Of a stretch of 64,000 nt of DNA, positions 7,471-61,578 are shown in pieces (position 1 is the first letter of the stretch; the number at the start of each line of letters is the position of its first letter). The stretch is from the NCBI GenBank assembly GCA_021781455.1, contig JAJXWV010000033.1, positions 201,169 through 265,168 of the forward strand, given 5' to 3'. The notes under the pieces were generated by a model, which saw only the letters and a list, made by a program, of their open reading frames with translations, was not told the origin of the DNA and did not search any database. The position numbers and the translations under genes are program-made. The DNA is from Acidobacteriota bacterium (lineage in GTDB: Bacteria > Acidobacteriota > Thermoanaerobaculia > Gp7-AA8).

Positions 7471-7491
7471 CTCGTCTATCATTCGCCGCAC

Positions 7492-10800: not shown

Positions 10801-11428
10801 GCAGCACGGCACGGACGGGGCTGGCATCGCCTCCCCGGATCCGCAGCGGAAGCGCGATCAGCTCGTAGGAACCCTCTTCGACGCCGTCGAGCACCAACCC
10901 TTCCAGATTCGCCATGTCGTGGCGGGCCAGCGCCTGGTGCGCCTCGAGCGCCTTCGACTCGAAAGGATCGACCGAAGGCGTATCGATACCGACGAGGATC
11001 ACGCCGCGTCCGTGAAGCTCGTCGACGAGCTCCGGCGAGAGGCTGGCGAAGTCGTCGTTCCAGCGACGCGGATCGGGAAACGTGCCGGTATGGAACAGCA
11101 CACGCGGAGCATCGATCCTCTTTCCAGCGACGTGCCGCGGCATGATGCGCGCGGAACGGGCCACGTCGACACGGAAGACGTTGCAGCGCCCGACGAAAAA
11201 ATCGAGAGGCCTGGCCGCGACGTCCTCGCCGCCGGCGAGGTAGTGGCTCGGCGCGTCGGTATGCGCGCCGACGTGCAGGGTGGTGCGAATGTCCGACAGC
11301 GTGAGGTTCGCGCCGGCGCTCATGTCCAGATTCACGTTGCGCTCGAAGGGGGTATCGCCCGGCCAGACGCCGATCGAAGAGTCGACGACGGGCGAGATGT
11401 CGATCAACCGTGCGCTGTCGTCGCTCAT
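10790..11428 (-). CDS. Cyclase-family protein (kynurenine formamidase / arylformamidase-like)
   Basis: HVGAHTDAPSHY metal-binding motif of the KynB/cyclase family, about 213 aa. ATGA overlap with the upstream gene's stop indicates translational coupling. The track ORF's N-terminal extension is an artefact. Confidence 0.75.
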   Translation of the reverse strand: MSDDSARLIDISPVVDSSIGVWPGDTPFERNVNLDMSAGANLTLSDIRTTLHVGAHTDAPSHYLAGGEDVAARPLDFFVGRCNVFRVDVARSARIMPRHVAGKRIDAPRVLFHTGTFPDPRRWNDDFASLSPELVDELHGRGVILVGIDTPSVDPFESKALEAHQALARHDMANLEGLVLDGVEEGSYELIALPLRIRGGDASPVRAVLRTL

Positions 11429-12897: not shown

Positions 12898-12907
12898 GTC
12901 TCGCCCT

Positions 12908-13365
12908 CTTTGAATTGAAAATTGAAAATTGAAAATTGAAAACGAAAAAAAACGAGAAATCAGTTTCGGCTGCGTCGAACGATCGTCGTCAGAATGGCAA
13001 TCAATTCGCTTGACTCTTCGATCAGCGGCTCAATCTTCTTGTGCTGCTCAGACAGCGATCGGTTCAAAATTCTGAGCCAGTACCTCGCCTCACGCGCTTC
13101 CTTGAGAGCGATTGTGCATTTAGAGATGAAATCCGCGCGACTTTGCGCCGCGTCAGCTTCCTCGAGATTTGCTCCCACAGAGCTCGCCGCATTGCTCCCC
13201 TGCGCACTGGTTCCGCGTAAAGCGGGTTCAGAGTGGTAGATGGAGCGGTGCAAGTCGACGACCGCACAGGCGAATTCAAACACACGTTCGCGCAGCTCCG
13301 AGCCCTTTCCGTCTTCGCGGTCTCGCACTCTCATGTCTTTTCAATTTTTCAATTTTCAATTTCGT
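12908..13365. mobile_element. Low-GC insertion carrying a four-helix-bundle protein gene, bounded by inverted arrays of GAAAATT heptamers (12908-12955 and 13338-13365)
   Basis: ttgaaaattgaaaattgaaaattgaaaa on the left and ttttcaatttttcaattttcaattt on the right. Composition is much more AT-rich than the flanking operon. Confidence 0.45.
12960..13334 (-). CDS. Four-helix-bundle protein (23S rRNA intervening-sequence protein family, TIGR02436-like)
   Basis: 124 aa helical protein with the conserved (F/Y)xL..Q..RA..S motif context typical of IVS/four-helix-bundle proteins. Atypical codon usage. Confidence 0.65.
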   Translation of the reverse strand: MRVRDREDGKGSELRERVFEFACAVVDLHRSIYHSEPALRGTSAQGSNAASSVGANLEEADAAQSRADFISKCTIALKEAREARYWLRILNRSLSEQHKKIEPLIEESSELIAILTTIVRRSRN

Positions 13366-13507
13366 TCGAGCCCCATCCTGAGGCTCTGCGCCAGATGGCA
13401 GAGCATCGCGCCGGCGGACATCCTTCCCCATTTCGGAACCATGTCATCGCGGATGCTTTTTACGCGATTGAGGATCTCGAGGCGGGCCGCGTCTTCCCAG
13501 AGGGTCT

Positions 13508-14989
13508 TCATAGTTTCACGCAGACGTTTTTCGGTTCCGTGAAGAAGTTCAGCGACTCGAATCCGCCCTCGCGGCCGACGCCGCTTTCTTTCATGCCGCC
13601 GAACGGGACGCGCAGGTCGCGCAGGAGCCAGCAGTTGATCCAGACCGTTCCGCTGTCGAGGGCGGCGGCGACGCGATGGGCGCGCCGCAGGTCGCGCGTC
13701 CACACCGTGGCGGAGAGTCCATAGCGCGTACCGTTGGCGAGCGCCAGCGCCTCCTCTTCGCTGTCGAACGGCGTCACCGTCACCACGGGCCCGAAAATCT
13801 CGTCCTGCAGGACGTCGGAGTCGCACGACAGGCCGGTGATGACGGTCGGCTCGACGAAGAATCCCGGGCGGTCGACCCTCTTTCCGCCCGTGTGGATCGT
13901 GCCGCCTTCCTTCTGCGCGATCTCCAAGTACCCGGAGACCTTCTGCAGGTGGGCTTCGCTGATCAACGCGCCGACGTCGGTCGTCTCGTCGAGCGGGTCG
14001 CCGACGCGAAGCCGCTTCGTCGCTTCGACAAAGCCGTCGAGGAAGGCATCGAAGACTGCCCTCTCCACGAAGATGCGCGATCCGCAAAGGCAGATCTCGC
14101 CCTGGTTCCAGAAGCTGGAGCGGATGGAGGTGGCGATCGCCTCCTCGAGATCGGCATCGGCGAAGAGGATGTTCGGGTTCTTTCCGCCGAGCTCCAGCGA
14201 AAGCTTCTTGAACATGGGGGCAGCGTTCGCGGCCACGCCCGCACCGGTCACCGTCCCGCCGGTGAACGAGAGCAGCGGCACATCGGGATGCCTGACCAGC
14301 GCACGGCCTGCCTTCTGGCCGTGTCCGTGGACGATGTTGATCACGCCCGGCGGGATTTCCGCCTCGAGCGAAAGCTCCGCGAGGCGATGGGCCGTGAGCG
14401 GAGTGAACTCGCTCGGTTTGGCGACGCACGTGTTTCCCGCGGCGATGGCCGGTGCGATCTTCCAGGAGAGCAGGTAGAGCGGCAGGTTCCACGGCGAGAT
14501 CAGGCCGGCCACGCCGACCGGCTGGCGCAGCGTGTAATTGAGCGCCGTTCCATCCGTGGAATGCGCCTCGGTGGACTGATGCAGGATCGCCGTGGCGAAG
14601 AAGCGGAAGTTCGCTGCGGCGCGCGGGATGTCGAGGCGCCGCGCCAGCGAAATCGGTTTCCCGCCGTCGCGCGCCTCCAGTCGCGCCAGCTCCTCGAGAT
14701 TGCCTTCGATCAGATCGCCGAGGCGGAGCAGCATCGCCGACCGTTCCGCGGCGGGCGTGTTGCTCCACGCCCTGAACGCCTGGCGGGCGGCGCTGACGGC
14801 GTTCTCGATGTCGCGCTCGTCGCTGTCCGGAACGGAGGCCATGACCTCGCCCGTGCCCGGCTCGATGTCCGGAATCGTCGTGCCCGAGGCAGCCGCTGTG
14901 AAACGACCGCCGATGAAGTTGCGAACGGCGACCGAAGACTGCGACCTGTTTCTCTTCGCTGCTTTGCTGCTCTCGTCCACATCAGTCAT
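13508..14989 (-). CDS. NAD(P)-dependent aldehyde dehydrogenase (2-hydroxy/2-aminomuconic semialdehyde dehydrogenase-like)
   Basis: ALDH catalytic motifs LELGGKNP and the catalytic Cys (EICLCGSR), plus an FTGGTVTG-type cofactor motif. 493 aa. Confidence 0.85.
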   Translation of the reverse strand: MTDVDESSKAAKRNRSQSSVAVRNFIGGRFTAAASGTTIPDIEPGTGEVMASVPDSDERDIENAVSAARQAFRAWSNTPAAERSAMLLRLGDLIEGNLEELARLEARDGGKPISLARRLDIPRAAANFRFFATAILHQSTEAHSTDGTALNYTLRQPVGVAGLISPWNLPLYLLSWKIAPAIAAGNTCVAKPSEFTPLTAHRLAELSLEAEIPPGVINIVHGHGQKAGRALVRHPDVPLLSFTGGTVTGAGVAANAAPMFKKLSLELGGKNPNILFADADLEEAIATSIRSSFWNQGEICLCGSRIFVERAVFDAFLDGFVEATKRLRVGDPLDETTDVGALISEAHLQKVSGYLEIAQKEGGTIHTGGKRVDRPGFFVEPTVITGLSCDSDVLQDEIFGPVVTVTPFDSEEEALALANGTRYGLSATVWTRDLRRAHRVAAALDSGTVWINCWLLRDLRVPFGGMKESGVGREGGFESLNFFTEPKNVCVKL

Positions 14990-16647: not shown

Positions 16648-17382
16648 ATGCGACGAACCACACACGTCCTCGCGCTCTTCCTCCTTGCCGCCTGCGCGAC
16701 TGCGCCGGTCATCGTTCCGAACCAGTACGGATTGCGGGTCGTGCCGGACTATGCGACCTACCAGCGCCTGGTGCGGCTCGATCCATCGATGCGGCTTGTG
16801 GACGTCGAGCACGCCGTTCCCGGAATCGGCATCGACGTCCGCTACGCCACGTCGAACAACTTCATGCACCGGCCGCTGTACCCGATCGCGAAGGTGTTCC
16901 TCCGCGCGCCGGCCGCCCAGGCCCTCGCCGACGTCGAGCGCGAGCTCGCGCCGCAGGGCCTCGGTCTGAAGGTGTTCGACGGTTACCGTCCTTACCGGAT
17001 CACCGAAGCGATGTGGGAGCCCATCAAGGATCCGGATTTCGTCGCCGATCCGTCGAAAGGCTCACGCCACAACCGCGGAGCGGCCGTCGACCTCACGCTC
17101 GTCGATCTCCACACCGGCGACGAGATCGCCATGCCCACGCCGTATGACGACTTCACGCCGCGTGCGCGCCAGGACTTCAACGACCTGCCCGCGGACGTGA
17201 TCGCCAACCGCGCGAAGCTGCGCGAGGTCATGGTGCGCCACGGCTTCGACCCCCTGCCGTCCGAGTGGTGGCACTTCGACTACCACAGCTGGCAGAAGTT
17301 CGAGCTGATGGACGTGACGCTCGAGGAGCTGGCCGCGCACCAGATCGCAGAGGGCAGAGCGCAGGCCAACCCGTCATTCTGA
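16648..17382 (+). CDS. ddpX: D-alanyl-D-alanine dipeptidase (VanX/DdpX, peptidase M15D) lipoprotein
   Basis: Signal peptide with lipobox (LLAACATAP). Motifs SRHNRGAAVDLTLVD and EWWHFDY typical of VanX-family zinc dipeptidases. The last codons run into a REP element. Confidence 0.8.
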   Translation: MRRTTHVLALFLLAACATAPVIVPNQYGLRVVPDYATYQRLVRLDPSMRLVDVEHAVPGIGIDVRYATSNNFMHRPLYPIAKVFLRAPAAQALADVERELAPQGLGLKVFDGYRPYRITEAMWEPIKDPDFVADPSKGSRHNRGAAVDLTLVDLHTGDEIAMPTPYDDFTPRARQDFNDLPADVIANRAKLREVMVRHGFDPLPSEWWHFDYHSWQKFELMDVTLEELAAHQIAEGRAQANPSF

Positions 17383-17640
17383 GCCACGCGGTGTGGGACA
17401 GGCTTCCCAGCCTGTCCTCTTTCGGGTGCTGGAAAACCCTCGCCGCACGAGCGGTTGGGTGGAGCGGCGTTGCGCGGCGAAGAGTCTCCAGATTGCATGA
17501 TCGCGGTGAGCCTCCTCACCTGCGCAATCTTTTCCGACCTAACAATCGTCCCGGTAAGAGACTCTTCGCCGCGCTACGCCGCCGGGGGCGGCTCCGCCGG
17601 CTCAGAGTGACGGGTTAGCCCGCGATCTGCGATCTGCCCT
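17371..17640. repeat. Family-A composite REP element copy
   Basis: Shares gtcattctgagcc, ggacaggcttcccagcctgtcc and gagtctcttaccgggacgattg modules with the other copies. Confidence 0.8.
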
Positions 17641-17651
17641 CTGCGATCTCG

Positions 17652-19424: not shown

Positions 19425-19850
19425 TCTTTATGGCTCTTCAGGATATTCAGTGGGTCCGGCGAGGTTTCGAAGGGCACTCCAGCCGTGGAGGCGTGAGGTT
19501 TAAGGCGGCTTAGCCGCCGTAAGAATTTAGCGGCGGCCGTCAGGCCGCCGGAACAAGCGATCGCATCAGCGTACGAGGGCACGAAGTGCCCGACAGAAGG
19601 CCGGGAAACAGACCGACGATCTGTCGCGCGCTGCGCGCGCTCGGACGCTGGGTCGGGCCGATCGGACGGCGGCCTGACGGCCGCCGCTAAATGATGTCGG
19701 CGGCTCCGCCGCCTCGACAAAGCCTTACTGGCAACTTCGACGTCTGACGGCCAGGGGTGAGGGCTTCTCCGTAAACGATTGACTCAGTAGCCATGAACCC
19801 AGCTGTCAGTTTCTGATCTCACCCACGGAAATCCCCGTAGAGCCATCTTT
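19425..19850. repeat. Family-B palindromic MITE-like element (core aatttagcggcggccgtcaggccgccg ... cggcggcctgacggccgccgctaaat)
   Basis: Copies in inverse orientation at 26855-27240, and a shorter copy at 51120-51335. Confidence 0.8.
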
Positions 19851-21654: not shown

Positions 21655-21905
21655 AGGGGGCGAATTCTAGCAAACCAGTCGAGGGACTGCGCGATTGCCG
21701 GTTGCGCGGTTGCGCGGTGTGTCTCTCGGGTCGATCTTTCATTTGTCGTTCGAGCCAGCATGCGGCTCGAACATTTGTGTGGGACAGCTCAGGGATCGCA
21801 CCAAGCAACCGCGGAACCGCGCAACCTCGTAACCGCGCAACCTCGTAACCGCGCAACCTCGTAACCTCGCAACCGCGTGAAGCAACCTCGTAACCTCGCG
21901 GCCTT
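21655..21905. repeat. Inverted tandem arrays of GGTTGCGC/CGCGCAACC-type short units flanking a short spacer
   Basis: ggttgcgcggttgcgcgg ... (ccgcgcaacctcgtaa)n. Related copies at 33226-33325 and 61541-61570. Confidence 0.7.
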
Positions 21906-23568: not shown

Positions 23569-23582
23569 GCTTACCTCAGATG

Positions 23583-23650
23583 GCAGATGGCAGATGGCAG
23601 ATCGCAGGTTTGAATCCGCCTGCGATCCGCGATCTGCCATCTGCGATCTT
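23583..23650. repeat. Inverted tandem array of GCAGATG/GCAGATC heptamers forming a hairpin
   Basis: tggcagatggcagatggcagatcgcagg..cctgcgatccgcgatctgccatctgcgatc between bshB1 and bshA. Confidence 0.75.
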
Positions 23651-24372: not shown

Positions 24373-24394
24373 GATCACATGTGAAGTGCTGAGT

Positions 24395-24465
24395 ACTGAG
24401 TGCTGAGTACTGAGTGCCGAGAACTCACGGGTCTTACTCAGTACTCAGCACTCAGTACTCAGCAC
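24395..24465. repeat. Inverted tandem array of CTGAGTA/CTGAGTG heptamers (hairpin)
   Basis: gtgctgagtactgagtgctgagtactgag ... ctcagtactcagcactcagtactcagcac. Confidence 0.8.
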
Positions 24466-24469
24466 TTCC

Positions 24470-26807: not shown

Positions 26808-27330
26808 CAAAAAGAAAATGTTGAATGTTGAATGTTGGCCCTACAGGGATTTCCGTGGGTGAGATGAAAATTGGCATTGACAGCTGGGTTCATTGCTACC
26901 GATGGTTTGCGGAGAAGCCCTCACCCCTGGACGTCTGACGTCGAATTTGCCATTGGAGCTTTGTCGAGGCGGCGGAGCCGTCGACATCATTTAGCGGCGG
27001 CCGTCAGGCCGCCGTCCGATCGGCCCGACCCAGCGTCCGAGCGCGCGCAGCGTGCGACAGATCCTCGGTCTGTTTCCCGGCCTTCTGTCGGGCACTTCGT
27101 GCCCTCGTACGCTGATGCGATCGCTTGCTCCGGCGGCCTGACGGCCGCCGCTAAATTCTTGCGGCGGCTAGGCCGCCTTGAAAGTCGCTGCTCCGCGGCG
27201 CGAGTGCACTCTTCGAAATTTCGCCGGACCCACTGAATATCCTGAAGCGCCTGAATATTCAATGTTGTCAGAGTCTCCGGTTCGCCTCTTCATCCAACAC
27301 TCAATATTCAACATTCAACACTTCGCTTTC
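26808..27330. repeat. Family-B MITE copy (26855-27240) sitting between inverted arrays of GAATGTT/GAATATT heptamers (26808-26835 and 27245-27330)
   Basis: aatgttgaatgttgaatgttgg on the left, caacactcaatattcaacattcaacac on the right. The internal 385 bp are the reverse complement of the 19425-19850 copy. Confidence 0.75.
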
Positions 27331-31940: not shown

Positions 31941-32010
31941 CCGCCAGCGCTGAGTCCTGAGTGCTGAGTAGAACGCGACTCAGGACTCAGGACTCAGGAC
32001 TCAGGACTTC
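31941..32010. repeat. Inverted tandem array of CTGAGTC/CTGAGTG heptamers
   Basis: gctgagtcctgagtgctgagta ... gactcaggactcaggactcaggactcaggac. Confidence 0.75.
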
Positions 32011-33225: not shown

Positions 33226-33325
33226 TGGATGGTTGCGCGGTTCCGGGGTTGCGCGGATCCGCGGTTTCCTCGTCGTCAGAAAGTTCACACGCGCAACCTG
33301 GTCATCACCGCGCAACCGCGCCACC
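33226..33325. repeat. GGTTGCGCGG-type inverted repeat element inserted between the antitoxin and toxin genes
   Basis: ggttgcgcggttccggggttgcgcgg ... ccgcgcaacc ... ccgcgcaaccgcg. Confidence 0.7.
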
Positions 33326-34165: not shown

Positions 34166-34266
34166 AATCGAGACGGGTAGCGGGTAGCGGGTAGCGGGTA
34201 GCGGGTAGGAAACACGGCCTACCCGGTACACGCTACCCGCTACACGCTACCCGCTACCCGCTACCC
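34166..34266. repeat. Inverted tandem arrays of GGGTAGC heptamers (hairpin)
   Basis: gggtagc x4 ... ctacccggtacacgctacccgctacacgctacccgctacccgctacccgc. Confidence 0.8.
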
Positions 34267-34286
34267 GCTGTCTTCTTGGGGGGCAC

Positions 34287-35824: not shown

Positions 35825-35960
35825 GAGTGCTGAGTACTGAGTGCTGAGTACTGAGTGCTGAGTACTGAGTGCTGAGTACTGAGTGCTGAGTACTGAGTGG
35901 TCAGTACTGAAGCCTCGGTTTTTCCCACTCAGTACTCAGCACTCAGTACTCAGCACTTCG
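35825..35960. repeat. Inverted tandem arrays of CTGAGTA/CTGAGTG heptamers (about 9 units per arm)
   Basis: Direct reading. The longest example of this hairpin class in the window. Confidence 0.85.
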
Positions 35961-37072: not shown

Positions 37073-37335
37073 GACTCCCGTCACTCTGATTCTGAGCCGG
37101 CGAAGCCGCGGTTCCCGTCACTCTGACTCTGAGCCCGCGAAGCCGCGGGGAAGGGTGGGCGGATGGAGCGGCGTAGCGCGGCGAAGAGTCTCAAACCGAC
37201 GAATCGTCCCGGTAAGAGACTCTTCGCCGCGCTCCACCGCTCCCACCCATCCACCACCCCCGCGTTTCCCCCGGCTCAGAGTGACGGGGCCGCTGGGCCC
37301 GCCGGCTCAGAGTGACGGGAGGCCGCGGCTCCGGC
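37073..37335. repeat. Family-A composite REP element (two tandem gtcactctga-type units plus a gagtctcttaccgggacgattcg inverted pair)
   Basis: Direct sequence comparison with the other copies. Confidence 0.8.
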
Positions 37336-39847: not shown

Positions 39848-39894
39848 TCGTCTGTTCTCATCAAGGATTGAGAAAGGGCGCCGGCAACGGCGCC

Positions 39895-40135
39895 CTTTTG
39901 TTACTTTCGGAGTTCCTCGGTTCCTCGGGGTTCCTCGGGGTTCCTCGGGGTTCCTCGGGGTTCCTCGGGGTTCCTCGGAGTTCCTCGGGGACCACTTTTG
40001 ATGATGATACCGAGGAACCGAGGAACCGAGGAACCGAGGAACCGAGGAACCGAGGAACCGAGGAACCGAGGAACCGAGGAACCGAGGAACCGAGGAACCG
40101 AGGAACCGAGGAACCGAGGAACCGAGGAACTTCTA
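39895..40135. repeat. Inverted tandem arrays: (ttcctcgggg)n on the left and (ccgaggaa)n on the right (about 9 plus 15 units)
   Basis: Direct reading. Overlaps the 3' end of sufT by a few nt. Confidence 0.85.
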
Positions 40136-40684: not shown

Positions 40685-40805
40685 TTCCTCGTGTCATCCT
40701 GAGCCGGCGAAGCGCGGCGAAGGACCCCGGAACAGGAATCGAAATGATCGGGGTCCTTCGCCGCGCTACGCGCCTTTGGCGCTCCGCCGGCTCAGGATGA
40801 CACCT
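40685..40805. repeat. Family-A REP element copy (tcatcctgagccggcg ... cgccggctcaggatga inverted pair)
   Basis: Between sufU and sufT. Confidence 0.75.
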
Positions 40806-40809
40806 GTGT

Positions 40810-41264: not shown

Positions 41265-41430
41265 CCCGCCCGGACCGCAGTTCGCAGACCGCAGACCGCA
41301 GATCGCGCGTCAGACACGCGCAGCATCCACTGCGGCGCGATCCACGCCAGAAAATCCCGAGGAACCCGAGGAACCAGGAACCCGAGGAACCAGGAACCCG
41401 GTCTGCGGTCTGTCGTCTGCGGTCTCGCGA
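41265..41430. repeat. Inverted arrays of gaccgcag and cccgaggaacc-type 8-11 nt units
   Basis: cggaccgcagttcgcagaccgcagaccgcagatcgcg ... cccgaggaacccgaggaaccaggaacccgaggaacc ... ggtctgcggtctgtcgtctgcggtctcg. Confidence 0.8.
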
Positions 41431-42758
41431 TCACCGGAACACCTCGATCACCCGCTTCAGACCGGCGATCAGCGCATCGACTTCTTCACGAGTGTTGTAC
41501 ATGCCGAACGACGCCCGGCTCGTCGCCGGAACGTTGAAGCGCATCATGAGCGGTTGCGCGCAGTGATGCCCGGTGCGGATGGCCACACCTTCCTGGTCGA
41601 GGATCGTGCCGATGTCGTGCGGATGAACGCCTTCCAGCGTGAAGGAGATGACACTGGCCTTCTCGGCCGCCGTGCCGATGATGCGCAATCCGGGAATCTC
41701 CACGAGCCTCCCGGTCGCGTAGACGAGCAGGTCGTGCTCGTGAGCGCCGATTTTCTCGATTCCGGCCGTGCTCACGTAGTCGAGTGCCGCAGCCAGGCCG
41801 AGCACCCCGGAGATATTCGGCGTTCCCGCTTCGAACTTGTACGGCAGCGCGTTGTAGGTGGTCTTCTCGAAGGTGACCGACAGGATCATGTCGCCGCCGC
41901 CCTGCCAGGGAGGCATCGCGTCGAGGATCGGCTGCTTGCCGTAGAGGACGCCGATGCCGGTCGGCCCGTAGACCTTGTGTCCTGAGAATGCGTAGAAATC
42001 GCAGTCGAGCTCCTGCACGTCGATGGGCAGATGAGGCACTCCCTGGGCGCCGTCGATCAGGATCAGCGATCCGTTGGCGTGGGCCAGGGCGATCATCTGC
42101 CGGATCGGGTTGATCGTGCCGAGGGCGTTGGAGGCGTGGCCGACGGCCACGATCTTCGTGCGCGGAGTGAGGAGGTTGGCGAATTGATCGAGCATGACCT
42201 CGCCAGCGTCGTTGACCGGCGCGATGCGCAGCTGGGCGTGCTTCTCGCCGCACAGCAGCTGCCACGGGACGATGTTCGAGTGATGCTCGATGGCCGTGAT
42301 CAGGACCTCGTCGCCCTCACCCACATTGGCGCGGCCCCAGGCCTGGGAGACGAGGTTGATCGACTCGGTCGTGCCGCGCGTGAAGACGATCTCCTTCTCG
42401 TCGCGGGCATTGAGGAAGCGCTTCACGGTCGTGCGCGCCGCCTCGTACTCGCTGGTGGCGACTTCGCTCAGGTAGTGCACGCCGCGATGAACGTTCGAGT
42501 TTTCTTCGCTGTAGTAGCGAACCAGGCGGTCGATCACCGCCTGCGGTTTCTGGGTGGTGGCTGCGTTGTCGAGATAGACGAGCTTCCGCCCGTGGACGCT
42601 GCGCGCCAGGATCGGGAAGTCGCGGCGGATGCTCTCGACGTCGTAGTCGGACCGCAGACCGCGGACCGCAGACCGCAGCGGCTGTGCTTCCGAGAGGCGG
42701 TCGGTGGTCGGCGATCGGTGCGCTGTGGTCTGCGGTCCGCGGTCTGCGGTCCGGGTGG

Positions 42759-42761: not shown

Positions 42762-44878
<2,117 letters not shown>

Positions 44879-44880
44879 TG

Positions 44881-44965
44881 ATCTGAAGTGCTGAGTACTG
44901 AGTGCTGAGTACTGAGTGTCCGACTTGCCCACTCAGTACTCAGCACTCAGCACTCAGTACTGCCT
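44881..44965. repeat. Inverted arrays of CTGAGTA/CTGAGTG heptamers between sufB and sufC
   Basis: The track ORF for sufC reads through this as MGKSDTQYSALSTQHF. Confidence 0.85.
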
Positions 44966-46904: not shown

Positions 46905-47180
46905 CGGGCGTCACCCAGTCGAGGGGTCAAAACAGTACCACTGCGGTACGGTTTATACAACCGCGCGGGCGGGCGGGTTTGTTCCTCGTGGTCGGAGCGT
47001 TCCGTACGGGGCGCGGAGGGGCTGTGGGGTACGCGGTCACCGGGTCACCAGGTCGCCGGGTCTCGAGGTCGCGAGGTCGGATCCACCCGGTGACCTGGTG
47101 ACCCGGTGACCCGATGTCCCGCCGCTGGAACATGCGACCCTCCCTCCCCGTTCTACACCCGCGAAAAGGAGAGTTGCCGA

Positions 47181-47713: not shown

Positions 47714-47778
47714 CAGTCCTGAGTGCTGAGTCCTGAGTCCTGAATGGATTGGACCTGGCTCGGCATCAACTGAAGTGA

Positions 47779-49345
<1,567 letters not shown>

Positions 49346-51002: not shown

Positions 51003-51020
51003 GCAGACAGGATAAGACAA

Positions 51021-51370
51021 GTGCTGAGTCCTGAGTGCTGAGTCCTGAGTGCTGAGTCCTGAGTGCTGAGTCCTGAGTGCTGAGTCCTGAGTGCTGAGTG
51101 CTGAGTGCTGAGCGCTGAGCGCCGAGGCGGCGGAGCCGCCGAAAGAATTTAGCGGCGGCCGTCAGGCCGCCGGAGGGTCGGTCGTGTGAGCGTAAGAGGG
51201 CGCGAAGCGCCCGGCAGAAAACTGGGGAGAAACACAAGGATCTGTCGCACGCTTTGCGCGCTCGGACGCTGCGTCGGCTGATCCGACGGCGGCCTGACGG
51301 CCGCCGCTAAATTCTTTCGGCGGCTCCGCCGCCTCAGCACTCGCCCACTCAGGACTCAGGACTCAGCACT
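51021..51370. repeat. Family-B MITE copy (51120-51335) nested between inverted arrays of CTGAGTC/CTGAGTG heptamers (51021-51115 and 51335-51370)
   Basis: About 13 heptamers on the left and 4 reverse-complement units on the right; the MITE core is in between. Confidence 0.8.
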
Positions 51371-52596: not shown

Positions 52597-52680
52597 CATC
52601 ACGGGCTCTTGGTTGTTGGCTCTTGGCTCTTGGGATGGCCGGGGTTGCCCAAGAGCCAAGAGCCAACAGCCAGGAGCCAA
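52597..52680. repeat. Inverted arrays of GCTCTTG/GTTGTTG heptamers upstream of the giant ORF
   Basis: ggctcttggttgttggctcttggctcttgg ... cccaagagccaagagccaacagccaggagccaac. Confidence 0.75.
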
Positions 52681-52690: not shown

Positions 52691-55600
52691 ATGGACGAAA
52701 GGCCGATCGACAGTGCGCCGGAGCATCCGCACGAGGGGCATCATCGCTCCGCGCGCGAGCGGCAGCGCCGTGGCCCGATGTGGGGCTGCCTGAGGACCAT
52801 CGTCATCGGCAGCATCGCCCTCTTCGCGCTGCTGATCGTCATCATCGGCGGCGGTTACGTCTATCTCGGATCGGCCAGTTTTGCCGATCTGGTCCGGCTG
52901 CGGATCCAGAAGACCCTGGAGAGCCGGCTGGGGCGGGCGGTGTCGATCGGCAGCGTGCAGATCGTCACCTCGCGGCCGCAGCACGTGATCATCAACGACC
53001 TGCGCATCGCCAATGCACCGGGTGCAGTGAACCGGTATTTCGCGACGGTGCGGCAGGTGGAGATCACCGGCGGGGTGGAGTCGTTCTGGGGACGCAACAT
53101 CACCGTCAGCCGCGTCGACATCCGCGACCCGCGCCTGAATTTCGAGATCTATCCGGCGGGCTCGAAGCTCGTGCACAACTTCCCGCACTGGAACCCCGGC
53201 CCGAAGAGCCGCTTCGAGATGGTCCACCTCACCATCGGCCGCCTCTTCGTCACGAGCGGGACGATGGACTTCCTCGACCGTCGTCACGACATTGCCGCGA
53301 CGGCGATGGACCTGGCCTCGGAGATCGACGTCGCGGCGAAAGGCGAAGTGTACGAAGGCATCGCCAACAGCCCGCGCATGACCGTGCGCATCCAGGACTA
53401 CGTGCCGTTCGATGTCGACCTGCGCGGCGGCTTCCGCTACATGCCCGGTGCGCTGGCGCTCAAGTCCATCGCCATGCACGGCCGGGGCATCGAAGCCTAT
53501 GTGGCGGGGAGGGTCGCGCCTCTCAGCGAAGGCATCTACACGCTGAACGTGCGCTCGAACGTCGCGTTGGACCGCGTCCGCGAGATTTTCCGGGTCAACC
53601 GCGTCCTGCAGGGCAATTTCATTCTCGACTCCGTTCTGCACGGAAACGGCGGCGCGTTCTCGCTCACCGGGGCATGGGCGTCGCCGAAGATCAGAGCCGA
53701 CGTCTACGACCTGACCGCGGCAAAGGGAAGGCTCGACGTCAACGGCGACCGCACCATCGTCGAGGTGAACACCGCCAGATACGGCGGAGGCACGATCTCC
53801 GCGCACTACGTCCTGCCGCAGTACTCCGAGCCCTATCCGATGTCGGTGGACCTCAGGTACAACGGCGTCTCGCTCGAGAAGCTATTCACCGACTGGGGCG
53901 TCAAGGACACTGGGCTGCGCGGCGGAGCCACGGGGCGGCTGGCCTATCACTGGAGCAAGGACAAGATCCTCGAAGGTGCCGGACGTGGGAGCGCCACGCT
54001 TTCGCGGACGACGACGGCGTTCTCCAATGCGAAGTACCCGATTCCGCTCGGAGGATCGGCGGACTTCGCTCTCGACAACGGCGTGGTCAGGTTCAGCCGG
54101 GCGTCGTTGACGACGGCGGCAACGTCCGTCGACTTCACCGGTTCGCTGCGCATCGAGGACGTCTACACCGACCTGGCCCTCCGCATTCACAGCGGCGATT
54201 TTTCCGAGCTCGACCGCCTCGGATTCAACTTCGCGCGGTCTGCGGGAAAGAACAAGTACGAGCTGCTCGGGTTAGGCGGGGCAGGCGACATCACCGGCAC
54301 GGTGAAGGGAAAGCTCAAGACGCCGCAGGTCGCCGCGCACATCGCAGGCACAGCCACGAAATACAACGACGCCCTGCTGGGCGACTCCGACATCGACCTC
54401 CGCTACGATGGTGTCAGGGGCCTGCTGACGTTCGATCGCGCGCTCTTCCGCGAGAGCGGCGGCCATCTGACCATGACCGGCACGATCGAGTTCCCGGACC
54501 GGGGGCCCTCGCCTCGATTCGACCTGGCGGTGGATGCAACCGGCTATCCTGTCGATCGCGCCGTCGCCGTGGTGACACTCCCGTTCAAAGGCATCCGCGG
54601 AGCGGGCACCGGACACATGGTCATCACCGGCACGCCCGATCAGGGGCGGGTCACGTTCGGGGGACTGACGATCGCGCAGGGGGCCTCCCAGCTCAAGCTC
54701 AACGGCGACATCTCCTGGTTCCCGGGGAAAGGCACCTCGCGGTTCAATCTCGACATCGCCGCGCGCGATTTTCCCGTCGCCGACATCGTCACCTTCCTCG
54801 ACCTCGGCACGGTGCCGGTGACCGGCCAGCTCACCGGCACGCTCCATCTCGAAGGGACGAAGACGAACCCCCAGGGCGCCGGCGCGATCACCGTTCGCAA
54901 CGGCACGATCTACGGCGAGCCGGTCACGCAGGCCACGGCGGACATCGCCTTCACGCAGGGCAAGCTTCGGGCGACGAACGTGAAGGTCACGGCACCGGCG
55001 GGGAACATCACCGGTGAGGCGGAGCTGGACCTCAACCAGAACAACTTCAGCTACACGATCCAGTCGAGCTCGATCGACCTGTCGAAGGTCAAGCTCCTGC
55101 AGTCGCTGGCCGGCCTGTTAGGCGGCAAAGTCACCATCACGTCGAGCGGCGCCGGGACGTTCAACCAGCCGGAGCTCGTCCTCTCCGCGACGCTCACGGA
55201 CGCCACGCTTCGCGGCCTCGCTCTTCCGGCCGGCACTCCACCACCTCAGCTCTACGTCGCCATCCGCAACGGACAGCTGATCGTCCGCGGTTCCATCGCA
55301 GACATCGTGACGGTCGACGGCAACGGTACGATCGGCGCGAATCTCTCGGTCAATGGCCTGGTCAGGATCGTCGTCGGCGACGTGGCGCGTTTCGCGGCCC
55401 TCTTCCCCTCCACGGCGACGCTGTCGGTTTCCGGGAAGCTCGAAACCGACCTTCAGCTCGGCGGCACGCTGTCCTCCATCGAAGGGATTCGCATCGACGG
55501 CACGGTTCCGGTCCTCGACATCTACCTCTCCGACCACGAGTTCACGCCCGCCCGCTCCATTCGCTTCGGCCTGCGCGGCGGCCGCCTCACCATCGACGAT

Positions 55601-58600
55601 TTCCAGCTGCAGCATCCCGGCGCCTCGTTTTCGCTGGCCGGCTCCGCGGACCTCGTCGGCGCGAAACAGCTGAACCTCACCCTGAAGGGCAACGTGGAAG
55701 CAGCGCTGGCGCAGCTGTTCGTGACCGGGCTGCGTGCCGACGGCCAGGTCGACGTGGCGGCCGCTCTCGGCGGGACCCTGGCTGCGCCGCGGATCACCGG
55801 CACGGCGGAAATCGAGAACGCTCAGTTCCGCTTCCCCGGATTCCCACAGATCATCGACCAGGTCACCGGCACGATCCGTTTCGAGGGCGAGCGCATAAGG
55901 ATCGAGGCTCTTCACGCCACGGTCGGCGGCGGCGAAGTCACCGCCGGGGGCGAGATCGCAGTCAACGGCATCAAGCCGCAGAACGTGAATCTCCGTCTCG
56001 AGGGAAAGGACGTGACTCTGCGGTATTTCGAAGGGCTGTCCATTGCCGGCACCTTCGGCCTGACCCTGCAGGGCGACCTCGAGCGCATGCGCCTCCAGGG
56101 CAGCGTGACCGTGAACCGTGCCCTGTACAGCCGCGATTTCGACTTCGGAACGGCGCTGCTCAACGTCGTCCTGGCACGCCGGACCATCATTCCCGTGGTC
56201 GGCGCGAGCTGGCAGGACAAGGTCAGCCTCCAGGTCCACATCGACGCTCGGGACACCCTGGCCATCCGAAACAACATCGCCGACGTCACCGGCTCCGGAA
56301 ACCTGGACGTGCGGGGAACTCTGGCCAACCCGACGGTCATCGGCACGGTGACACTCGACGAAGGCGGCCGCGTGCGCCTGCAGAGTGTCGACTACCACGT
56401 CATCAGCGGCTCGATCAGTTTTCAGAATCCGTTCCGCATCGATCCGTATTTCGACATCACCCTGGAAGGACGCGTGTCGAGCGTCGGGTATTCGGAATTC
56501 GACCGGGGCGGCCCGATCGACGTGACCATCAACCTCACCGGCACGATCGACCGCTTCACTCCCTCGATCACCAGTGATCCGCCGGCCAGCGACATCACCC
56601 TCTTTTCGCTTCTCGGCCTCGGCGCTCTGGCCGGCCGCACCACCGGCGGCACCGTTCAGGCAACGCCCAATACCGGGGTCCTCGGTGTCGGCCAGTCCAT
56701 CCTGGCTCAGAGCCTTCTGCGCGCGATCCCGTTCGCCAGCGCGTTCAGCTACGACCCTGGCTATCTCGATGTCACCGACGATCCCGGGCCTAAGGTCACG
56801 TTCCAGCGCCAGATCTCGAGCAACCTCCGCGTTCTGGTGATCTACAACCTCAAGACCTCGCTCACCCGGAGCCTTCTGGAGTGGCAGGTAAGTCCCGACT
56901 GGACGCTGCAGTTCACCCAGGACGAGATTCGCAAGGAGTACCGCGTCGAGGCGCGCTTCCGCAGGCGTTACGAAGGACACTGGACCTGGGGTGGCCACGG
57001 GCGGCCCGTGACCATGTCGGCTTCGATCGGCAGGCTGGCCGGCGCCAGAGCCACCCAGCAGTCGCCGGCGGCGACGCCCGCGCCGATGGGCACCGGGCCG
57101 ATGGTCACGCGCATTGCCTACCGCGCCGACGCGGCGTTCGACACGTCGGTACTCAAGCAGTACATCGCCGTGAAAATCGGGCAACCGCTTTCCAGACGCG
57201 CGGTGCAGGCCTCGATCAAGAGCATCTTCGCCACCGGCGACTTCCGCGACATCCAGGTTGAGACCACTCCCGACGGGCCCGGTGTGGCAGTCACGTTCGT
57301 GCTGTCGCTCAATTACCGCATCGCGGAGATCCACTTCGACGGCATCTCCGGCTCACTGAAGGACCGTGCCGATCACGACCTGACCGTGCACATCGGCGAC
57401 GTCCTCTCCCTCAACGCCATCGACCGCAGTGCCACGGCCGTGCAGCAGGGACTCAACGACATCGGCTACCTGGAAGCCTCGGTCGACCCGGAGACACAGT
57501 TCGAGCGCGCGCACAGCCGGGCCGTCATCATCTTCCACGTCACCGCCGGGCCGCAGGCGAAGATCGGGACGGTCCTCGTCGCCGGCAATGTCGCGCCATT
57601 CACTCCCGCCACGCTGATCCAGCAGATGCGCCGCGGTCCCGGCAAGACGTTCAACCGACAGCAGGCGCGCGCGGATGCTTACCTGATGCGGCGTTTCATG
57701 CTCCGCCGCGATTACCGGAAGGCCGAAGTTCGCTACCTCGGCGACACGTACGAGAAAGCCACTGCCACCGTGGCCCTCCGCTACAGCGCGATCTCCGGAC
57801 CGAAGGTGCGTGTCGAGGTCGTCGGTGTGCCGCGGCACGCCGTCCGCGGCGTTCTGCCGTTCTCGCGCAACCAGGCCTACAGCGAGGACGCCATCGAAGC
57901 GGCTGCGCAGAACATCATCACGCTCTATCAACAGCGCGGTTACTACAACGTGGCCGTCGACACCGAAGGACGACTCCAGCCGGACGACACCTGGGTGACC
58001 ACTTTCAACGTCAAGCCGGGGGAACACTTCCGGCTGACCGCGGTCAACTTCACGGGGAACACGAAGATTGCAGCCAGGAAACTGCGCCAGGTCGTCACCA
58101 CCGCACCGCAGGGAGGTATCCGCTCGTTCTTCGCGGGGTTGTTCCACCGCGGCGGGGTCACGCAGGCCCAACTGACCAGCGATCAGGATGCCATCCAGTC
58201 GCTGTACCGGCTCGAGGGGTTCTCCGAGGCCACCGTCGCCACGTCGGTGGTGAGCACGAACGCCGCGGCCGGCACCATGACGGTGACCTTCCCGATCACC
58301 GAAGGGCCGCAGACGATGGTCGCCAGCCTGAAGATCGAAGGGAATGAACAGGTCCCGGCGCGCGACCTTCCGGCGCTGCAGCTCGAGGCCGGCCATCCGT
58401 TCAATCCGCAACTGCTGCGGACGGACATCGTCAACCTGCAGAGCTACTACGCAGACCGCGGCAATGCCGAGGTTCAGATCACGCCGCGCATGGACATCTC
58501 GGACGACAAGACGAACGCAAACGTAACGTACGTCATCGCCGAGGGGCCGAAGATCAAGATCGATGACGTCATCGTTCGCGGCAATACCTACACGAAATCG

Positions 58601-59899
58601 AGCGTGGTGCTGCGCGAGGCAGAGCTGAAGAAAGGGAAGCCGTTCTCCTACTCCTCGCTGCTCGAAGCGCAGCGGAATCTCTACGGGCTCGGCATCTTCC
58701 AGCGAGCGGAGGTGCAGCCCGAGCAGGCCGGCACGGCCGTGGACGAGCGCAATGTGGTCCTGCAGGTGGAGGAAGGAAAAGACCTCACTGTCTCCGGTTC
58801 CCTCGGTGCCGCCAAACAGACGGGAGTCGGCAATGCGCTCGTAGGCTCCGTATCTCTGGCCAACCGCAACCTCTTCGGCACCGGACGCTTCCTCGGAATG
58901 GATCTCGTGGGAAGCAACAACGGCCAGCGGCGAGAGGCCTTCCTCACCTATCGCGAACCGTTCATCGGTCCTTACAACGTGCCGGTTCAGATTTCGATCT
59001 TCAAGAGCGACGAGCAGCGGACGAGTGCGCACATCGTCCAGCGCGGCCTTTCCATCGAGGCGACCAAGATCACCCGCTTCGAGACCCGATGGTCGCTCCG
59101 ATACGAATACCGCATCGCCGACTGCAAGATCGAAAATCCCGGTGACCTTTGTTCGCAGGTCGCCCAGGCGCTCATCCCCGGGATCGATCGCAGTATCTCC
59201 GACGTCAGCATCGCCGACATCACGCCGACGTTCTTCTGGGACAAGCGCGACGATCCCATCGATCCGCACCGCGGCTTCTTCACCAGCGCCTCGGTCGAAT
59301 ACGCGTTCCACGCGTTCGCCGCGCATGCCCAGTTCTTCAAGGAATACGCGCAGGCGTCGTACTACCTGCCCCTCAGCGCGCGCACGGTTTTCGCAGTCTC
59401 GTCGCGCCTCGGGCTGATCCAGGCACTCGGATCGACCGCCTCGGACAACTGCGGCGAGTCCTGCATACCCCTCACCGAGCGTTTCACCGGAGGGGGCGAG
59501 TCTTCGCACCGCGCCTACTCGCTCGACCTCCTCGGCGATCTCTGCTCAGAGGAAAACAATCCCGGACCGGGATGCCGGTCGACTCTCGTGCGTTTGGTCA
59601 ACCCGGACGGCTCGCCCGGCAACGTCGCCGCGATCGGCGGACGCGGCCTGTTCATCACGAATCTCGAGCTGCGCTTCCCGATCTTTGCCAGCGTGGGCGG
59701 CGCGCTGTTCACCGACATTGGAAACGTGTTCGCCGACAGCACCATCCAGTTGAACAACCTGCGCTATGGCGTCGGCGCCGGCATCCGCTATCTGTCACCG
59801 GTCGGCCCGCTGCGCTTCGACATCGGCTACAAGCTTCATCGGGAACCCCAGTACGAGAAGCCCTTCGCGTACTTCATCACGCTGGGTTACGCGTTCTGA
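52691..59899 (+). CDS. Giant fusion protein: TamB/AsmA-like translocation-assembly module (N-terminal signal-anchor plus DUF490) covalently fused to a complete Omp85/BamA-TamA-like module (POTRA repeats plus 16-strand beta-barrel)
   Basis: Single uninterrupted frame of about 2400 codons. N-terminal TM anchor (LRTIVIGSIALFALLIVIIGG), TamB-type repetitive beta-rich body and DUF490 C-terminal region (..DITLFSLLGLG.., LEWQVSPDWTLQFTQD). A roughly 40 aa non-hydrophobic linker follows, then POTRA-like repeats (e.g. IRGNTYTKSSVVLREAELKKGKPFSYSSLLEAQRNLYGLGIF). The Omp85 barrel has the RFTGGGESSHRAYS (RGF/GG) motif and the terminal ...FITLGYAF. The Omp85 part has no signal peptide of its own. Confidence 0.8.
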   Translation: MDERPIDSAPEHPHEGHHRSARERQRRGPMWGCLRTIVIGSIALFALLIVIIGGGYVYLGSASFADLVRLRIQKTLESRLGRAVSIGSVQIVTSRPQHVIINDLRIANAPGAVNRYFATVRQVEITGGVESFWGRNITVSRVDIRDPRLNFEIYPAGSKLVHNFPHWNPGPKSRFEMVHLTIGRLFVTSGTMDFLDRRHDIAATAMDLASEIDVAAKGEVYEGIANSPRMTVRIQDYVPFDVDLRGGFRYMPGALALKSIAMHGRGIEAYVAGRVAPLSEGIYTLNVRSNVALDRVREIFRVNRVLQGNFILDSVLHGNGGAFSLTGAWASPKIRADVYDLTAAKGRLDVNGDRTIVEVNTARYGGGTISAHYVLPQYSEPYPMSVDLRYNGVSLEKLFTDWGVKDTGLRGGATGRLAYHWSKDKILEGAGRGSATLSRTTTAFSNAKYPIPLGGSADFALDNGVVRFSRASLTTAATSVDFTGSLRIEDVYTDLALRIHSGDFSELDRLGFNFARSAGKNKYELLGLGGAGDITGTVKGKLKTPQVAAHIAGTATKYNDALLGDSDIDLRYDGVRGLLTFDRALFRESGGHLTMTGTIEFPDRGPSPRFDLAVDATGYPVDRAVAVVTLPFKGIRGAGTGHMVITGTPDQGRVTFGGLTIAQGASQLKLNGDISWFPGKGTSRFNLDIAARDFPVADIVTFLDLGTVPVTGQLTGTLHLEGTKTNPQGAGAITVRNGTIYGEPVTQATADIAFTQGKLRATNVKVTAPAGNITGEAELDLNQNNFSYTIQSSSIDLSKVKLLQSLAGLLGGKVTITSSGAGTFNQPELVLSATLTDATLRGLALPAGTPPPQLYVAIRNGQLIVRGSIADIVTVDGNGTIGANLSVNGLVRIVVGDVARFAALFPSTATLSVSGKLETDLQLGGTLSSIEGIRIDGTVPVLDIYLSDHEFTPARSIRFGLRGGRLTIDDFQLQHPGASFSLAGSADLVGAKQLNLTLKGNVEAALAQLFVTGLRADGQVDVAAALGGTLAAPRITGTAEIENAQFRFPGFPQIIDQVTGTIRFEGERIRIEALHATVGGGEVTAGGEIAVNGIKPQNVNLRLEGKDVTLRYFEGLSIAGTFGLTLQGDLERMRLQGSVTVNRALYSRDFDFGTALLNVVLARRTIIPVVGASWQDKVSLQVHIDARDTLAIRNNIADVTGSGNLDVRGTLANPTVIGTVTLDEGGRVRLQSVDYHVISGSISFQNPFRIDPYFDITLEGRVSSVGYSEFDRGGPIDVTINLTGTIDRFTPSITSDPPASDITLFSLLGLGALAGRTTGGTVQATPNTGVLGVGQSILAQSLLRAIPFASAFSYDPGYLDVTDDPGPKVTFQRQISSNLRVLVIYNLKTSLTRSLLEWQVSPDWTLQFTQDEIRKEYRVEARFRRRYEGHWTWGGHGRPVTMSASIGRLAGARATQQSPAATPAPMGTGPMVTRIAYRADAAFDTSVLKQYIAVKIGQPLSRRAVQASIKSIFATGDFRDIQVETTPDGPGVAVTFVLSLNYRIAEIHFDGISGSLKDRADHDLTVHIGDVLSLNAIDRSATAVQQGLNDIGYLEASVDPETQFERAHSRAVIIFHVTAGPQAKIGTVLVAGNVAPFTPATLIQQMRRGPGKTFNRQQARADAYLMRRFMLRRDYRKAEVRYLGDTYEKATATVALRYSAISGPKVRVEVVGVPRHAVRGVLPFSRNQAYSEDAIEAAAQNIITLYQQRGYYNVAVDTEGRLQPDDTWVTTFNVKPGEHFRLTAVNFTGNTKIAARKLRQVVTTAPQGGIRSFFAGLFHRGGVTQAQLTSDQDAIQSLYRLEGFSEATVATSVVSTNAAAGTMTVTFPITEGPQTMVASLKIEGNEQVPARDLPALQLEAGHPFNPQLLRTDIVNLQSYYADRGNAEVQITPRMDISDDKTNANVTYVIAEGPKIKIDDVIVRGNTYTKSSVVLREAELKKGKPFSYSSLLEAQRNLYGLGIFQRAEVQPEQAGTAVDERNVVLQVEEGKDLTVSGSLGAAKQTGVGNALVGSVSLANRNLFGTGRFLGMDLVGSNNGQRREAFLTYREPFIGPYNVPVQISIFKSDEQRTSAHIVQRGLSIEATKITRFETRWSLRYEYRIADCKIENPGDLCSQVAQALIPGIDRSISDVSIADITPTFFWDKRDDPIDPHRGFFTSASVEYAFHAFAAHAQFFKEYAQASYYLPLSARTVFAVSSRLGLIQALGSTASDNCGESCIPLTERFTGGGESSHRAYSLDLLGDLCSEENNPGPGCRSTLVRLVNPDGSPGNVAAIGGRGLFITNLELRFPIFASVGGALFTDIGNVFADSTIQLNNLRYGVGAGIRYLSPVGPLRFDIGYKLHREPQYEKPFAYFITLGYAF

Positions 59900-59924: not shown

Positions 59925-60115
59925 CGAAGCGCGCCCCCGTCACTCTGAGCCGGCGGAACCGCGGGTGCGGTGGATGGGCGGGAGCGGTGGAGCGCGGCGA
60001 AGAGTCTCTTACCGGGACGATTGACAGGTGTGAGACTCTTCGCCGCGCTACGCCGCTCCACCACCCGCCCTTCCCCGCGGCTACGCCGGCTCAGAGTGAC
60101 GGAGCCGCGATCATT
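59925..60115. repeat. Family-A composite REP element copy
   Basis: gtcactctgagccggcg / gagtctcttaccgggacgattg / caatcg..gagactcttcgccgcg / ggctcagagtgacgg modules. Confidence 0.8.
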
Positions 60116-61525: not shown

Positions 61526-61578
61526 ACTGAGCCAGCGCACAACGGGTTACGAGGTTGCGCGGTTACGCGGTGAGCGCA

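Follow-up and report, generated by a model that had tools for sequence, protein, structure and literature searches.

Inverted tandem-heptamer hairpins in an Acidobacteriota genome: candidate foldback insertion elements related to four-helix-bundle intervening-sequence cassettes

What produces a hairpin whose arms are themselves tandem repeats, and why should hairpins of one build but many different sequences be scattered through a single bacterial genome? The question is raised by a 64,000-nt stretch of the genome of a soil bacterium of the Acidobacteriota (contig JAJXWV010000033.1, positions 201,169 to 265,168; here called the window), in which the spacer between the genes for MlaD and Ddl contains an array of 7-nt units followed, after a short loop, by the reverse-complement array, and in which the same architecture recurs with other units. 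On balance, and with some reserve, we favor the view that these hairpins are mostly cargo-less foldback insertion elements related to the intervening sequences (IVSs) of 23S rRNA and to cassettes that encode a four-helix-bundle protein. The nearest relatives of the window (G+C content of ca. 65%) are metagenome-assembled genomes (MAGs) of Thermoanaerobaculia (Acidobacteriota); L-numbers denote loci or contigs fetched for comparison. Genes in the window were placed by a third-position-GC filter, the gene calls of the fetched contigs, and Pfam scans.

The hairpin that raised the question was delimited with Tandem Repeats Finder (TRF), a stem search, RNA folding, and its orthologue in L170:

35825-35957, no strand: hairpin with units CTGAGTA/CTGAGTG

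TRF resolves the left arm (35825-35910) into 12.3 copies of the 7-nt unit or, when read as the 14-nt unit GAGTGCTGAGTACT, into 6.1 copies with 97% matches; the right arm (35926-35957), which begins 15 nt after the left arm, holds 4.6 reverse-complement copies. The inner part of the arms forms a perfect 33-bp stem (35868-35900 paired with 35925-35957), and the RNA has a minimum free energy of -97.3 kcal/mol (z = -11.8), with none of 200 shuffles folding as well. The hairpin starts 3 nt past the MlaD stop (35822) and ends 20 nt ahead of the Ddl start (35978), and both genes are on the plus strand.

The feature is real and abundant. A detector that pairs neighboring TRF arrays when their units are reverse complements found 18 inverted pairs in the window and none in 30 dinucleotide shuffles of it. 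Short-period arrays number 66 (37 of period 7 and 13 of period 8), against a shuffle mean of 13.5. Together with the hairpin at 39907-40130, whose arms have periods of 10 and 8, this gives 19 complete hairpins, besides which there are 3 half or decayed ones. Arm lengths cluster at 31 to 33 nt, and period 7 is dominant. The original prediction, made from the sequence of the window, had proposed an over-represented class defined by architecture rather than by unit sequence and distinct from any one repetitive extragenic palindromic (REP) family, and this is what we find: many coexisting units, one period (7), and one arm length (ca. 31 nt), far above chance. Every locus that it listed exists, although those at 2165, 47711, and 61541 are half or decayed hairpins, and two more (17341-17649 and 47035-47121) had been missed. 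In five hairpins, what it took for a loop is a center of 220 to 450 nt with cargo (one gene, three elements resembling miniature transposable elements with inverted repeats [MITEs], and one set of nested hairpins). Being tandem, near-perfect, mostly intergenic, and variable in copy number, the heptamers also answer to the description of heptanucleotide simple sequence repeats (SSRs) or short tandemly repeated repetitive (STRR) sequences, a description that leaves the inverted pairing and the fixed arm length uncovered. Two copies (42648-42753 and 43723-43807) lie inside coding sequence rather than between genes. The remaining elements, unstranded unless marked, are as follows:

2167-2255: decayed GGGTAGC hairpin, 3.3 units and a degenerate right arm
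7076-7472: GGGTAGC hairpin, 9.7/4.3 units, in the divergent Trm112/glycosyltransferase spacer (z = -11.5); its 299-nt center (7143-7443) holds nested hairpins
12913-13362, minus strand: cargo-bearing hairpin, arms (AATTGAA)4.3 and (TTTTCAA)3.4, enclosing the four-helix-bundle gene
12960-13334, minus strand: four-helix-bundle gene, 124 amino acids (aa)
17341-17649: CAGATCG/CAGAGCG hairpin, with a MITE-like element (17370-17614) exactly central
21688-21899: hairpin of the 8-mer GGTTGCGC, 4/9 units
23577-23649: GCAGATG hairpin, occupying the BshB-BshA spacer
24383-24468: CTGAGTA/G hairpin with a perfect 33-bp stem, occupying the BshC-BshB spacer
26817-27320: arms of GAATGTT units, separated by 453 nt that include a MITE-like element (26964-27181)
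31950-32008: CTGAGTC/G hairpin in a divergent spacer
33231-33325: GGTTGCGC hairpin separating the genes for the PhdYeFM antitoxin and the ParE toxin
34174-34269: GGGTAGC hairpin between Maf and MlaD, 5/7.3 units
39907-40130: largest hairpin, (TCGGGGTTCC)8.6 versus (GGAACCGA)15.2, after an ordinary terminator-like hairpin
41273-41425: GACCGCA hairpin whose center contains a nested (CCCGAGGAA)n array
42648-42753, minus strand: GACCGCA/G hairpin within the first 45 codons of SufS
43723-43807, minus strand: hairpin of the 9-mer GGTTCCTCG, in frame within SufD
44887-44961: CTGAGTA/G hairpin in the SufB-SufC spacer
47035-47121: hairpin of the 8-mer GGTCACCG
47715-47743: half hairpin, CTGAGTC/G left arm only
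51020-51370: CTGAGTG/C hairpin of 14.3/3.4 units, its center occupied by a MITE-like element (51117-51342)
52604-52680: GGCTCTT hairpin upstream of the giant TamB-Omp85 gene
61545-61571: single GGTTACGC array, a half element

The cargo-bearing hairpin at 12913-13362 provides the link to a known gene family. The gene that it encloses scores 73.1 bits against TIGR02436 (cut-off, 24), matches PF05635, and belongs to the Avd-like family of the 23S rRNA IVS protein (S23p); the profile of alignment A1, which includes the window protein, matched PDB entry 2RLD (five chains). The cassette is inserted between, and is co-directional with, the Aldedh and LigB/Rid genes. Its arms are terminal inverted repeats around an open reading frame (ORF) and provide an IVS-type stem (ca. 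28 bp or more). An IVS proper lies within a 23S or 16S rRNA helix, whereas this cassette lies between Aldedh and LigB, and Rfam at the gathering threshold gave no match across the whole window, rRNA included. ARAGORN likewise found no tRNA in the window. In Coxiella burnetii, an ORF of the PF05635 family lies inside a 28-bp stem cut by RNase III, and the 5′ side of that stem is made of three tandem GACAGAT heptamers plus one degenerate unit, the number of which varies between strains (PMC4990558).

The same build is found among homologues of the window gene. In a first pass over 80 fetched metagenome loci (41 to 70% identity), inverted repeats of at least 14 nt flanked the gene in 64 of the 76 loci with enough flank, and the arms had period 7 in 58 of the 76 (units GAATTGA, GAATTGAG, GGATTGA, and GAATTTA). 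When the count is extended to all gene copies with enough flank in the metagenome loci, inverted repeats of 14 nt or more enclose 89 of 101; among the 83 bracketed cassettes left once duplicates are removed, the commonest stem length is 31 nt. Another Thermoanaerobaculia locus (L029) has the gene flanked by AAGAGTG arms, and L176 has the same cassette ahead of the same LigB/Rid gene. On the Nostoc punctiforme plasmid pNPUN02 the gene lies between (CAATTCG)4.7 and (AATTGCG)4.7, and on Anabaena cylindrica pANACY.01 (L173) and a plasmid of Nostoc sp. TCL26-01 (L175) it separates cas2 from cas1, lies on the opposite strand, and has (AAAAGTA)n arms. PF05635 genes were previously noticed inside cas loci (PMC3936711) and also in rRNA insertions of candidate phyla radiation bacteria. 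A scan of viral contigs yielded no relatives of the gene. The association of heptamer arms with a four-helix-bundle gene thus holds across phyla, and because the homologues, the plasmid copies, and the Coxiella IVS share one build, we regard the cargo-bearing hairpin as equivalent in kind to an rRNA IVS, with an operon as its site. The window hairpins, the cyanobacterial cassettes, and the Coxiella IVS probably constitute one family of insertion elements.

Gene-bearing and gene-less forms meet at individual loci. At the Aldedh-LigB/Rid junction, L176 has the cassette, L178 has an ORF-less 8-mer hairpin, and L177 has neither, and in L095 an ORF-less hairpin and a cassette, both with AATTGAA arms, are 1 kb apart. 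A search for the empty cassette site in the sister species found no LigB homologue nearer than 75%. As side observations on this junction, L177 has a 302-aa LigB-family gene between Aldedh and the LigB/Rid fusion gene, a gene that is not at this site in the window (11425-14989) or in L176, where the cassette sits instead; and the public annotation of the window places a 51-aa gene at 13356-13511 (minus strand) over the upstream arm of the cassette, which is probably spurious and illustrates how the hairpins create false small ORF calls.

Across 1.6 Mb of fetched related loci, our census counted 122 pairs of inverted arrays; 112 have period 7, and arm length peaks sharply at 30 to 35 nt (4.3 to 5.0 units). 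The gap between arms is bimodal, at 0 to 50 nt for gene-less and 350 to 420 nt for gene-bearing hairpins. Hairpins occur in Thermoanaerobaculia, Terriglobia, Holophagae, Blastocatellia, and one Anaerolineales MAG, and most other sampled loci had no heptamer hairpins. In the manner of MITEs, the hairpins have terminal inverted repeats and dispersed copies, with several families having 2 to 4 copies. Identical 32-nt arms, AGTGCTGAGTACTGAGTGCTGAGTACTGAGTG, stand at 24383, 35825, and 44887, with centers that differ and resemble decayed units, and CTGAGTN arrays are also present in L010, L012, L065, and L170. Extreme expansions were seen at L012 997-1414 (a Thermoanaerobaculia MAG; 38 and 12 units of AGGACTT/CTCAGTC) and at L075 12033-12226 (the Anaerolineales MAG; 20.6 units of ATAAGAA).

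Comparison of orthologous sites, which the original prediction had recommended, revealed filled and empty versions of the same junctions. L170 represents a sister species (83 to 90% identity across window positions 29.9 to 49.1 kb). Its hairpins at MlaD-Ddl, SufB-SufC, and the start of SufS are orthologous to those of the window, and it has no counterpart of the ones that the window has at 31950 and 39907, in the Maf-MlaD spacer, and in SufD. At the position of the half hairpin 47715-47743, L170 has a complete CTGAGTA/G hairpin, and at the antitoxin-ParE junction it has an AGGGATG hairpin (3738-3815) where the window has the GGTTGCGC hairpin (33231-33325). The first unit of that L170 hairpin supplies the final codons and the stop codon of the PhdYeFM antitoxin. 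Four relatives have an overlapping ATGA stop/start at the MlaD-Ddl junction, while three genomes have three different hairpins there. A second pair of syntenic loci, L007 and L005 (80 to 85% identity), tells the same story: their alignment breaks at the hairpins of L007, one of which follows a stop codon at a place where L005 has nothing and another of which separates a stop codon from the ATG that follows it, a spacer of 14 nt in L005.

Some copies are accommodated within genes. Relative to L170, the window SufD has two in-frame insertions (the hairpin 43723-43807 and a palindrome at 43883-43946), for a net gain of 37 codons; in both species the ATG of SufS overlaps the SufD stop, and the first ca. 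45 codons of SufS traverse the hairpin. In L007, an 87-nt (CGGGGGT)4.4 hairpin (14899-14976) lies in frame within the gene for the HflX GTPase, between the G4 and G5 motifs (NKAD and SAL), where there are 29 codons against 11 in L005 and the frame stays open; 280 nt farther downstream, just past the stop codon, is a second hairpin built of these units. In practical terms, the hairpins add 29 to 45 codons to the annotated SufS, SufD, and HflX. These comparisons show that hairpins insert at gene junctions in operons, that genes now and then accept them in frame in parts that tolerate them, and that they persist through speciation. A candidate rule of insertion, in which similar sequence nearby would be the source or the target of the unit, was dropped: two empty sites look unit-like only by eye, and the similarity of empty site to unit was not above that of all 40-nt windows of the same loci (p = 0.14, 0.09, 0.82, 0.045, and 0.77).

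The arms themselves also evolve. Copy number is unequal between the arms of one hairpin (12.3/4.6, 9.7/4.3, and 14.3/3.4), and the arms at 39907 have fixed different unit variants (TCGGGGTTCC versus TCGGTTCC), both of which fit slippage. Between orthologues, the MlaD-Ddl hairpin has 4.7/4.6 units in L170 versus 12.3 in the left arm of the window copy. The SufS hairpin differs in another way: between the window (GACCGCA/G) and L170 (GACCGCC), stem positions 9, 16, 23, and 30 are changed on both sides, which is the same position in every heptamer, with A-T or G-C having become C-G, and 30 of 31 positions are paired in each species. Eight independent matching substitutions are not credible, and the arms must therefore be homogenized. 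Judged from these alignments, arms do change copy number, and a change at one unit position does spread to all units of both arms; the suggestion of a generating mechanism is supported insofar as something other than point mutation shapes the arms. Copy number would change through replication slippage, and the arms might regain complementarity when the template is switched inside the palindrome or when one copy converts another. Template switching in quasi-palindromes is said to be an established mutational route, associated with the names of Ripley and Lovett.

Many hairpins take up the entire spacer between genes of one direction (bshC-bshB-bshA, suf, antitoxin-toxin, and MlaD-Ddl) and so must be transcribed. 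A role as intrinsic terminators, one of the functions originally suggested, was rejected: no U-tract follows the heptamer hairpins, a terminator scan of window positions 31 to 48 kb listed none of them and instead picked separate, ordinary hairpins beside them (e.g., 39872-39899), and many copies lie inside operons or ORFs. Nor do the hairpins match any Rfam family. G:U mismatches favor the sense over the antisense strand by 38:22 in cassettes (p = 0.05) and by 11:4 in gene-less hairpins between co-directional genes, the latter in a small test in which the GC3-based (third-position-GC) orientation caller left 24 of 46 hairpins unassigned.

From these observations we propose the following. The element would consist of two inverted arms of ca. 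31 to 33 nt, each of about 4.4 tandem units of 7 nt (sometimes 8 to 10 nt). In its full-size form it would hold, between the arms, a four-helix-bundle gene of ca. 120 codons (PF05635; S23p/Avd-like), as in the 23S rRNA IVS, and the gene-less copies would relate to the gene-bearing form as MITEs do to full transposons. Once transcribed, elements would form duplexes of at least 30 bp; such perfect duplexes should probably be substrates of RNase III. Cutting would split a polycistronic RNA and leave the stem halves at the new ends, so that insertion may do little harm.

Several points weigh against this proposal. The window has no transposase (Y1 or other), reverse transcriptase (RT), or REP-associated tyrosine transposase (RAYT) gene, so that the partner that the original prediction had suggested seeking, a TnpA-REP enzyme, did not appear there. 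Nor was a transposase-encoding partner with the same ends found, as MITEs would have; the only protein found as cargo is of the four-helix-bundle family and is no known transposase. The gene is present in only 1 of the 22 window hairpins, the gene-less ones use unit sequences other than those of the cassette, and a tblastn search (E ≤ 1) of the other centers (7143-7443, 26838-27290, and others) found no decayed four-helix-bundle gene. No convincing target-site duplication was evident at L007 J3 and J4 or at the window sites, and L007 J1 has one imperfect 6-nt direct repeat (TGAGAG/TGACAG). Cleavage by RNase III is argued by analogy with the Coxiella IVS, the sense-strand G:U bias is marginal and suggestive only, and, given 33-bp stems inside the essential SufS and SufD frames, cleavage cannot be obligatory or unconditional. 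Finally, passages of PMC4679880 and PMC4692102 that cite Mrazek (2007) give heptamers as the commonest unit of long SSRs in prokaryotes; since a bias to slippage in heptamers is general among bacteria, some of the pattern can be accounted for without any element.

Taken to its limit, this last argument would dispense with the element altogether: each hairpin would have grown in place, by slippage that favors 7-nt units and a fold-back template switch that makes the inverse array. The heptamer bias of long SSRs reported in those same passages, the variation in copy number between arms and between orthologues, the extreme diversity of the units, and the by-eye resemblance of two empty sites to units would all suit such growth. 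We nevertheless think it unlikely, since identical 32-nt arms stand at three unlinked loci of the window and again in L170, arm length is held sharply at 31 to 33 nt regardless of unit, one gene family is associated across phyla, and the resemblance of empty sites to units does not exceed background. Similarly improbable, in our judgment, is the view that the hairpins are not selfish but are host RNA structures selected site by site, that is, intercistronic processing or stabilizing hairpins of the kind formed by REPs and bacterial interspersed mosaic elements (BIMEs) in the mal operon mRNA or by the RNase III sites of T7 early RNA. Exact stop-start placement in the suf, bsh, mla-ddl, and toxin-antitoxin operons, the orthologous retention of three hairpins between sister species with compensatory change, and wobble mismatches that favor the sense strand are what such selection would leave. 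Against this, the same junctions lack any spacer in related genomes, unit families substitute for one another at a single junction, copies lie within reading frames, and half and decayed copies occur.

Mobilization as REPs or REP doublets forming hairpins (REPINs) by a RAYT (an IS200/IS605-like Y1 transposase) encoded elsewhere in the genome has been weakened to the point where we hold it very improbable. The hairpins are indeed palindromic, intergenic, and multicopy, and the genome also has GTAG palindromes (10692-10794 and 43883-43946); however, the arms are tandem arrays of 7 to 10 nt rather than single palindromes of 20 to 40 nt, most units lack the GTAG/CGTC tag of REPs as an excerpt of PMC3733652 gives it (only GGGTAGC contains GTAG), the fetched flanks are as devoid of a RAYT as the window, and many unrelated unit families coexist. 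As for an artifact of short-read MAG assembly, contigs do often break within arrays (L003 and L004 terminate within the one at 35825, as expected of a repeat), and the breaking of short-read assemblies is a practical consequence of the hairpins. This explanation is refuted, as the independent assembly L002 has the 35825-35957 hairpin identical base for base, orthologous copies exist in another species, and finished Nostoc and Anabaena plasmids have the same design.

The foldback-insertion reading can be extended in a way that we put forward tentatively and consider rather doubtful. PF05635 proteins and heptamer arms might form one mobile system across phyla, in which the pentamer would bind about five single-stranded heptamers, cassettes would be autonomous, and gene-less hairpins would be their dependants. 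The arms would be rewritten from a unit by dedicated copying, possibly of RNase III-excised RNA by an RT acting in trans, as for Avd in diversity-generating retroelements. If this were true, rRNA IVSs, cyanobacterial STRRs, and the inverted arrays of Xanthomonas would be united, and PF05635, a very large family whose role is not established outside diversity-generating retroelements, would gain a function. The origin of rRNA IVSs and of bacterial heptamer repeats has been a standing question for over three decades. The cassettes of Acidobacteriota and Cyanobacteria, the Coxiella IVS, and the abundant gene-less hairpins are linked by having about 4.4 heptamers per arm, and this shared architecture opens direct tests: binding of the protein to the arms, cutting by RNase III, and whether unit families track protein paralogues.

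Precedents for these elements are partial; in open-access full text we found no description of multifamily heptamer foldback hairpins or of a link between the gene and heptamers. Closest are the 23S rRNA IVSs of Coxiella, Leptospira, and others, with a PF05635 ORF between inverted arms that in Coxiella contain variable tandem heptamers. The window elements differ in lying between or inside protein-coding genes, in being nearly all ORF-less, and in having many unit families; RNase III cuts the Coxiella stem, whereas for the window elements such cutting is a prediction. Heterocystous cyanobacteria reportedly have several types of heptanucleotide STRR, dispersed in intergenic regions as direct arrays, an account that goes back to Mazel and colleagues in 1990. 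They share the tandem heptamers, and four-helix-bundle genes of Nostoc and Anabaena are bracketed by such arrays, but neither the inverted pairing nor the gene link is part of the STRR descriptions that we found. REPs, BIMEs, REPINs, and MITEs resemble the window hairpins as small, palindromic, multicopy elements with a species-specific consensus at gene junctions in operons; the window arms, in contrast, are tandem short units of fixed period and number, with no transposase or RAYT partner in the window and no clear target duplication. In-frame insertion into protein-coding genes without their destruction is said to be a property of the Rickettsia palindromic elements described by Ogata and colleagues in 2000, which have no sequence relationship to the window hairpins and lack arms of tandem units. 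Foldback (FB) transposons of Drosophila have long inverted arms of short tandem repeats, variable arm length, and a center that is empty or coding; the likeness is architectural only, FB being eukaryotic and far larger. In Xanthomonas, 70 to 75 inverted pairs of GGGAATC arrays per genome have been discussed as G-quadruplex motifs (Rehm et al. 2015, PMC4692102). Those arrays are likewise tandem heptamers in convergent, intergenic pairs whose length varies between related species, but the report concerns a single unit sequence and has no gene-family link, insertion dynamics, or in-frame copies. The Xanthomonas and Coxiella precedents, like the link to the IVS and the four-helix-bundle gene, the insertion and loss dynamics, and the in-frame copies, had escaped the original prediction.

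The window also contains small elements of other kinds. A MITE-like element of ca. 215 nt with termini GGCGGCGGAGCCGCC...TTTAGCGGCGGCCGTCAGGCCGCCG is present at 19503-19714, 26964-27181, and 51117-51342. Two of these three copies lie exactly in hairpin centers, which thus appear to be preferred landing sites. A second MITE-like family (CCCGTCAYTCTGAGCC / GGCTCAGRGTGACGGG termini) is found at 17370-17614, 37076-37282, 40691-40806, 49094-49340, and 59930-60109, as well as at L170 7473-7646; one window copy is in the center of a heptamer hairpin, and the copy at 37076 has its own end tandemly duplicated (37 nt). Hairpin centers do serve, then, as landing sites for other small elements. Perfect palindromes of yet another kind, containing GTAG and possibly of the classical REP type, lie at 43883-43946 (CCGTGTAGGACAGGCTTTCCAGCCTGTCCT...) and 10692-10794 (TGTAGGGACGCGCAGCAGCGCGTCC...).

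Two observations concern neighboring genes. The longest ORF of the Trm112-like gene (6793-7206) crosses the GGGTAGC array, but the domain begins only at Met59. On the plus strand, 52700-59899 is one ORF of ca. 2,400 codons with TamB/DUF748/YhdP-like regions, four POTRA repeats, and an Omp85 barrel; as TamB and TamA are usually two proteins in Proteobacteria, this gene looks like a fusion.

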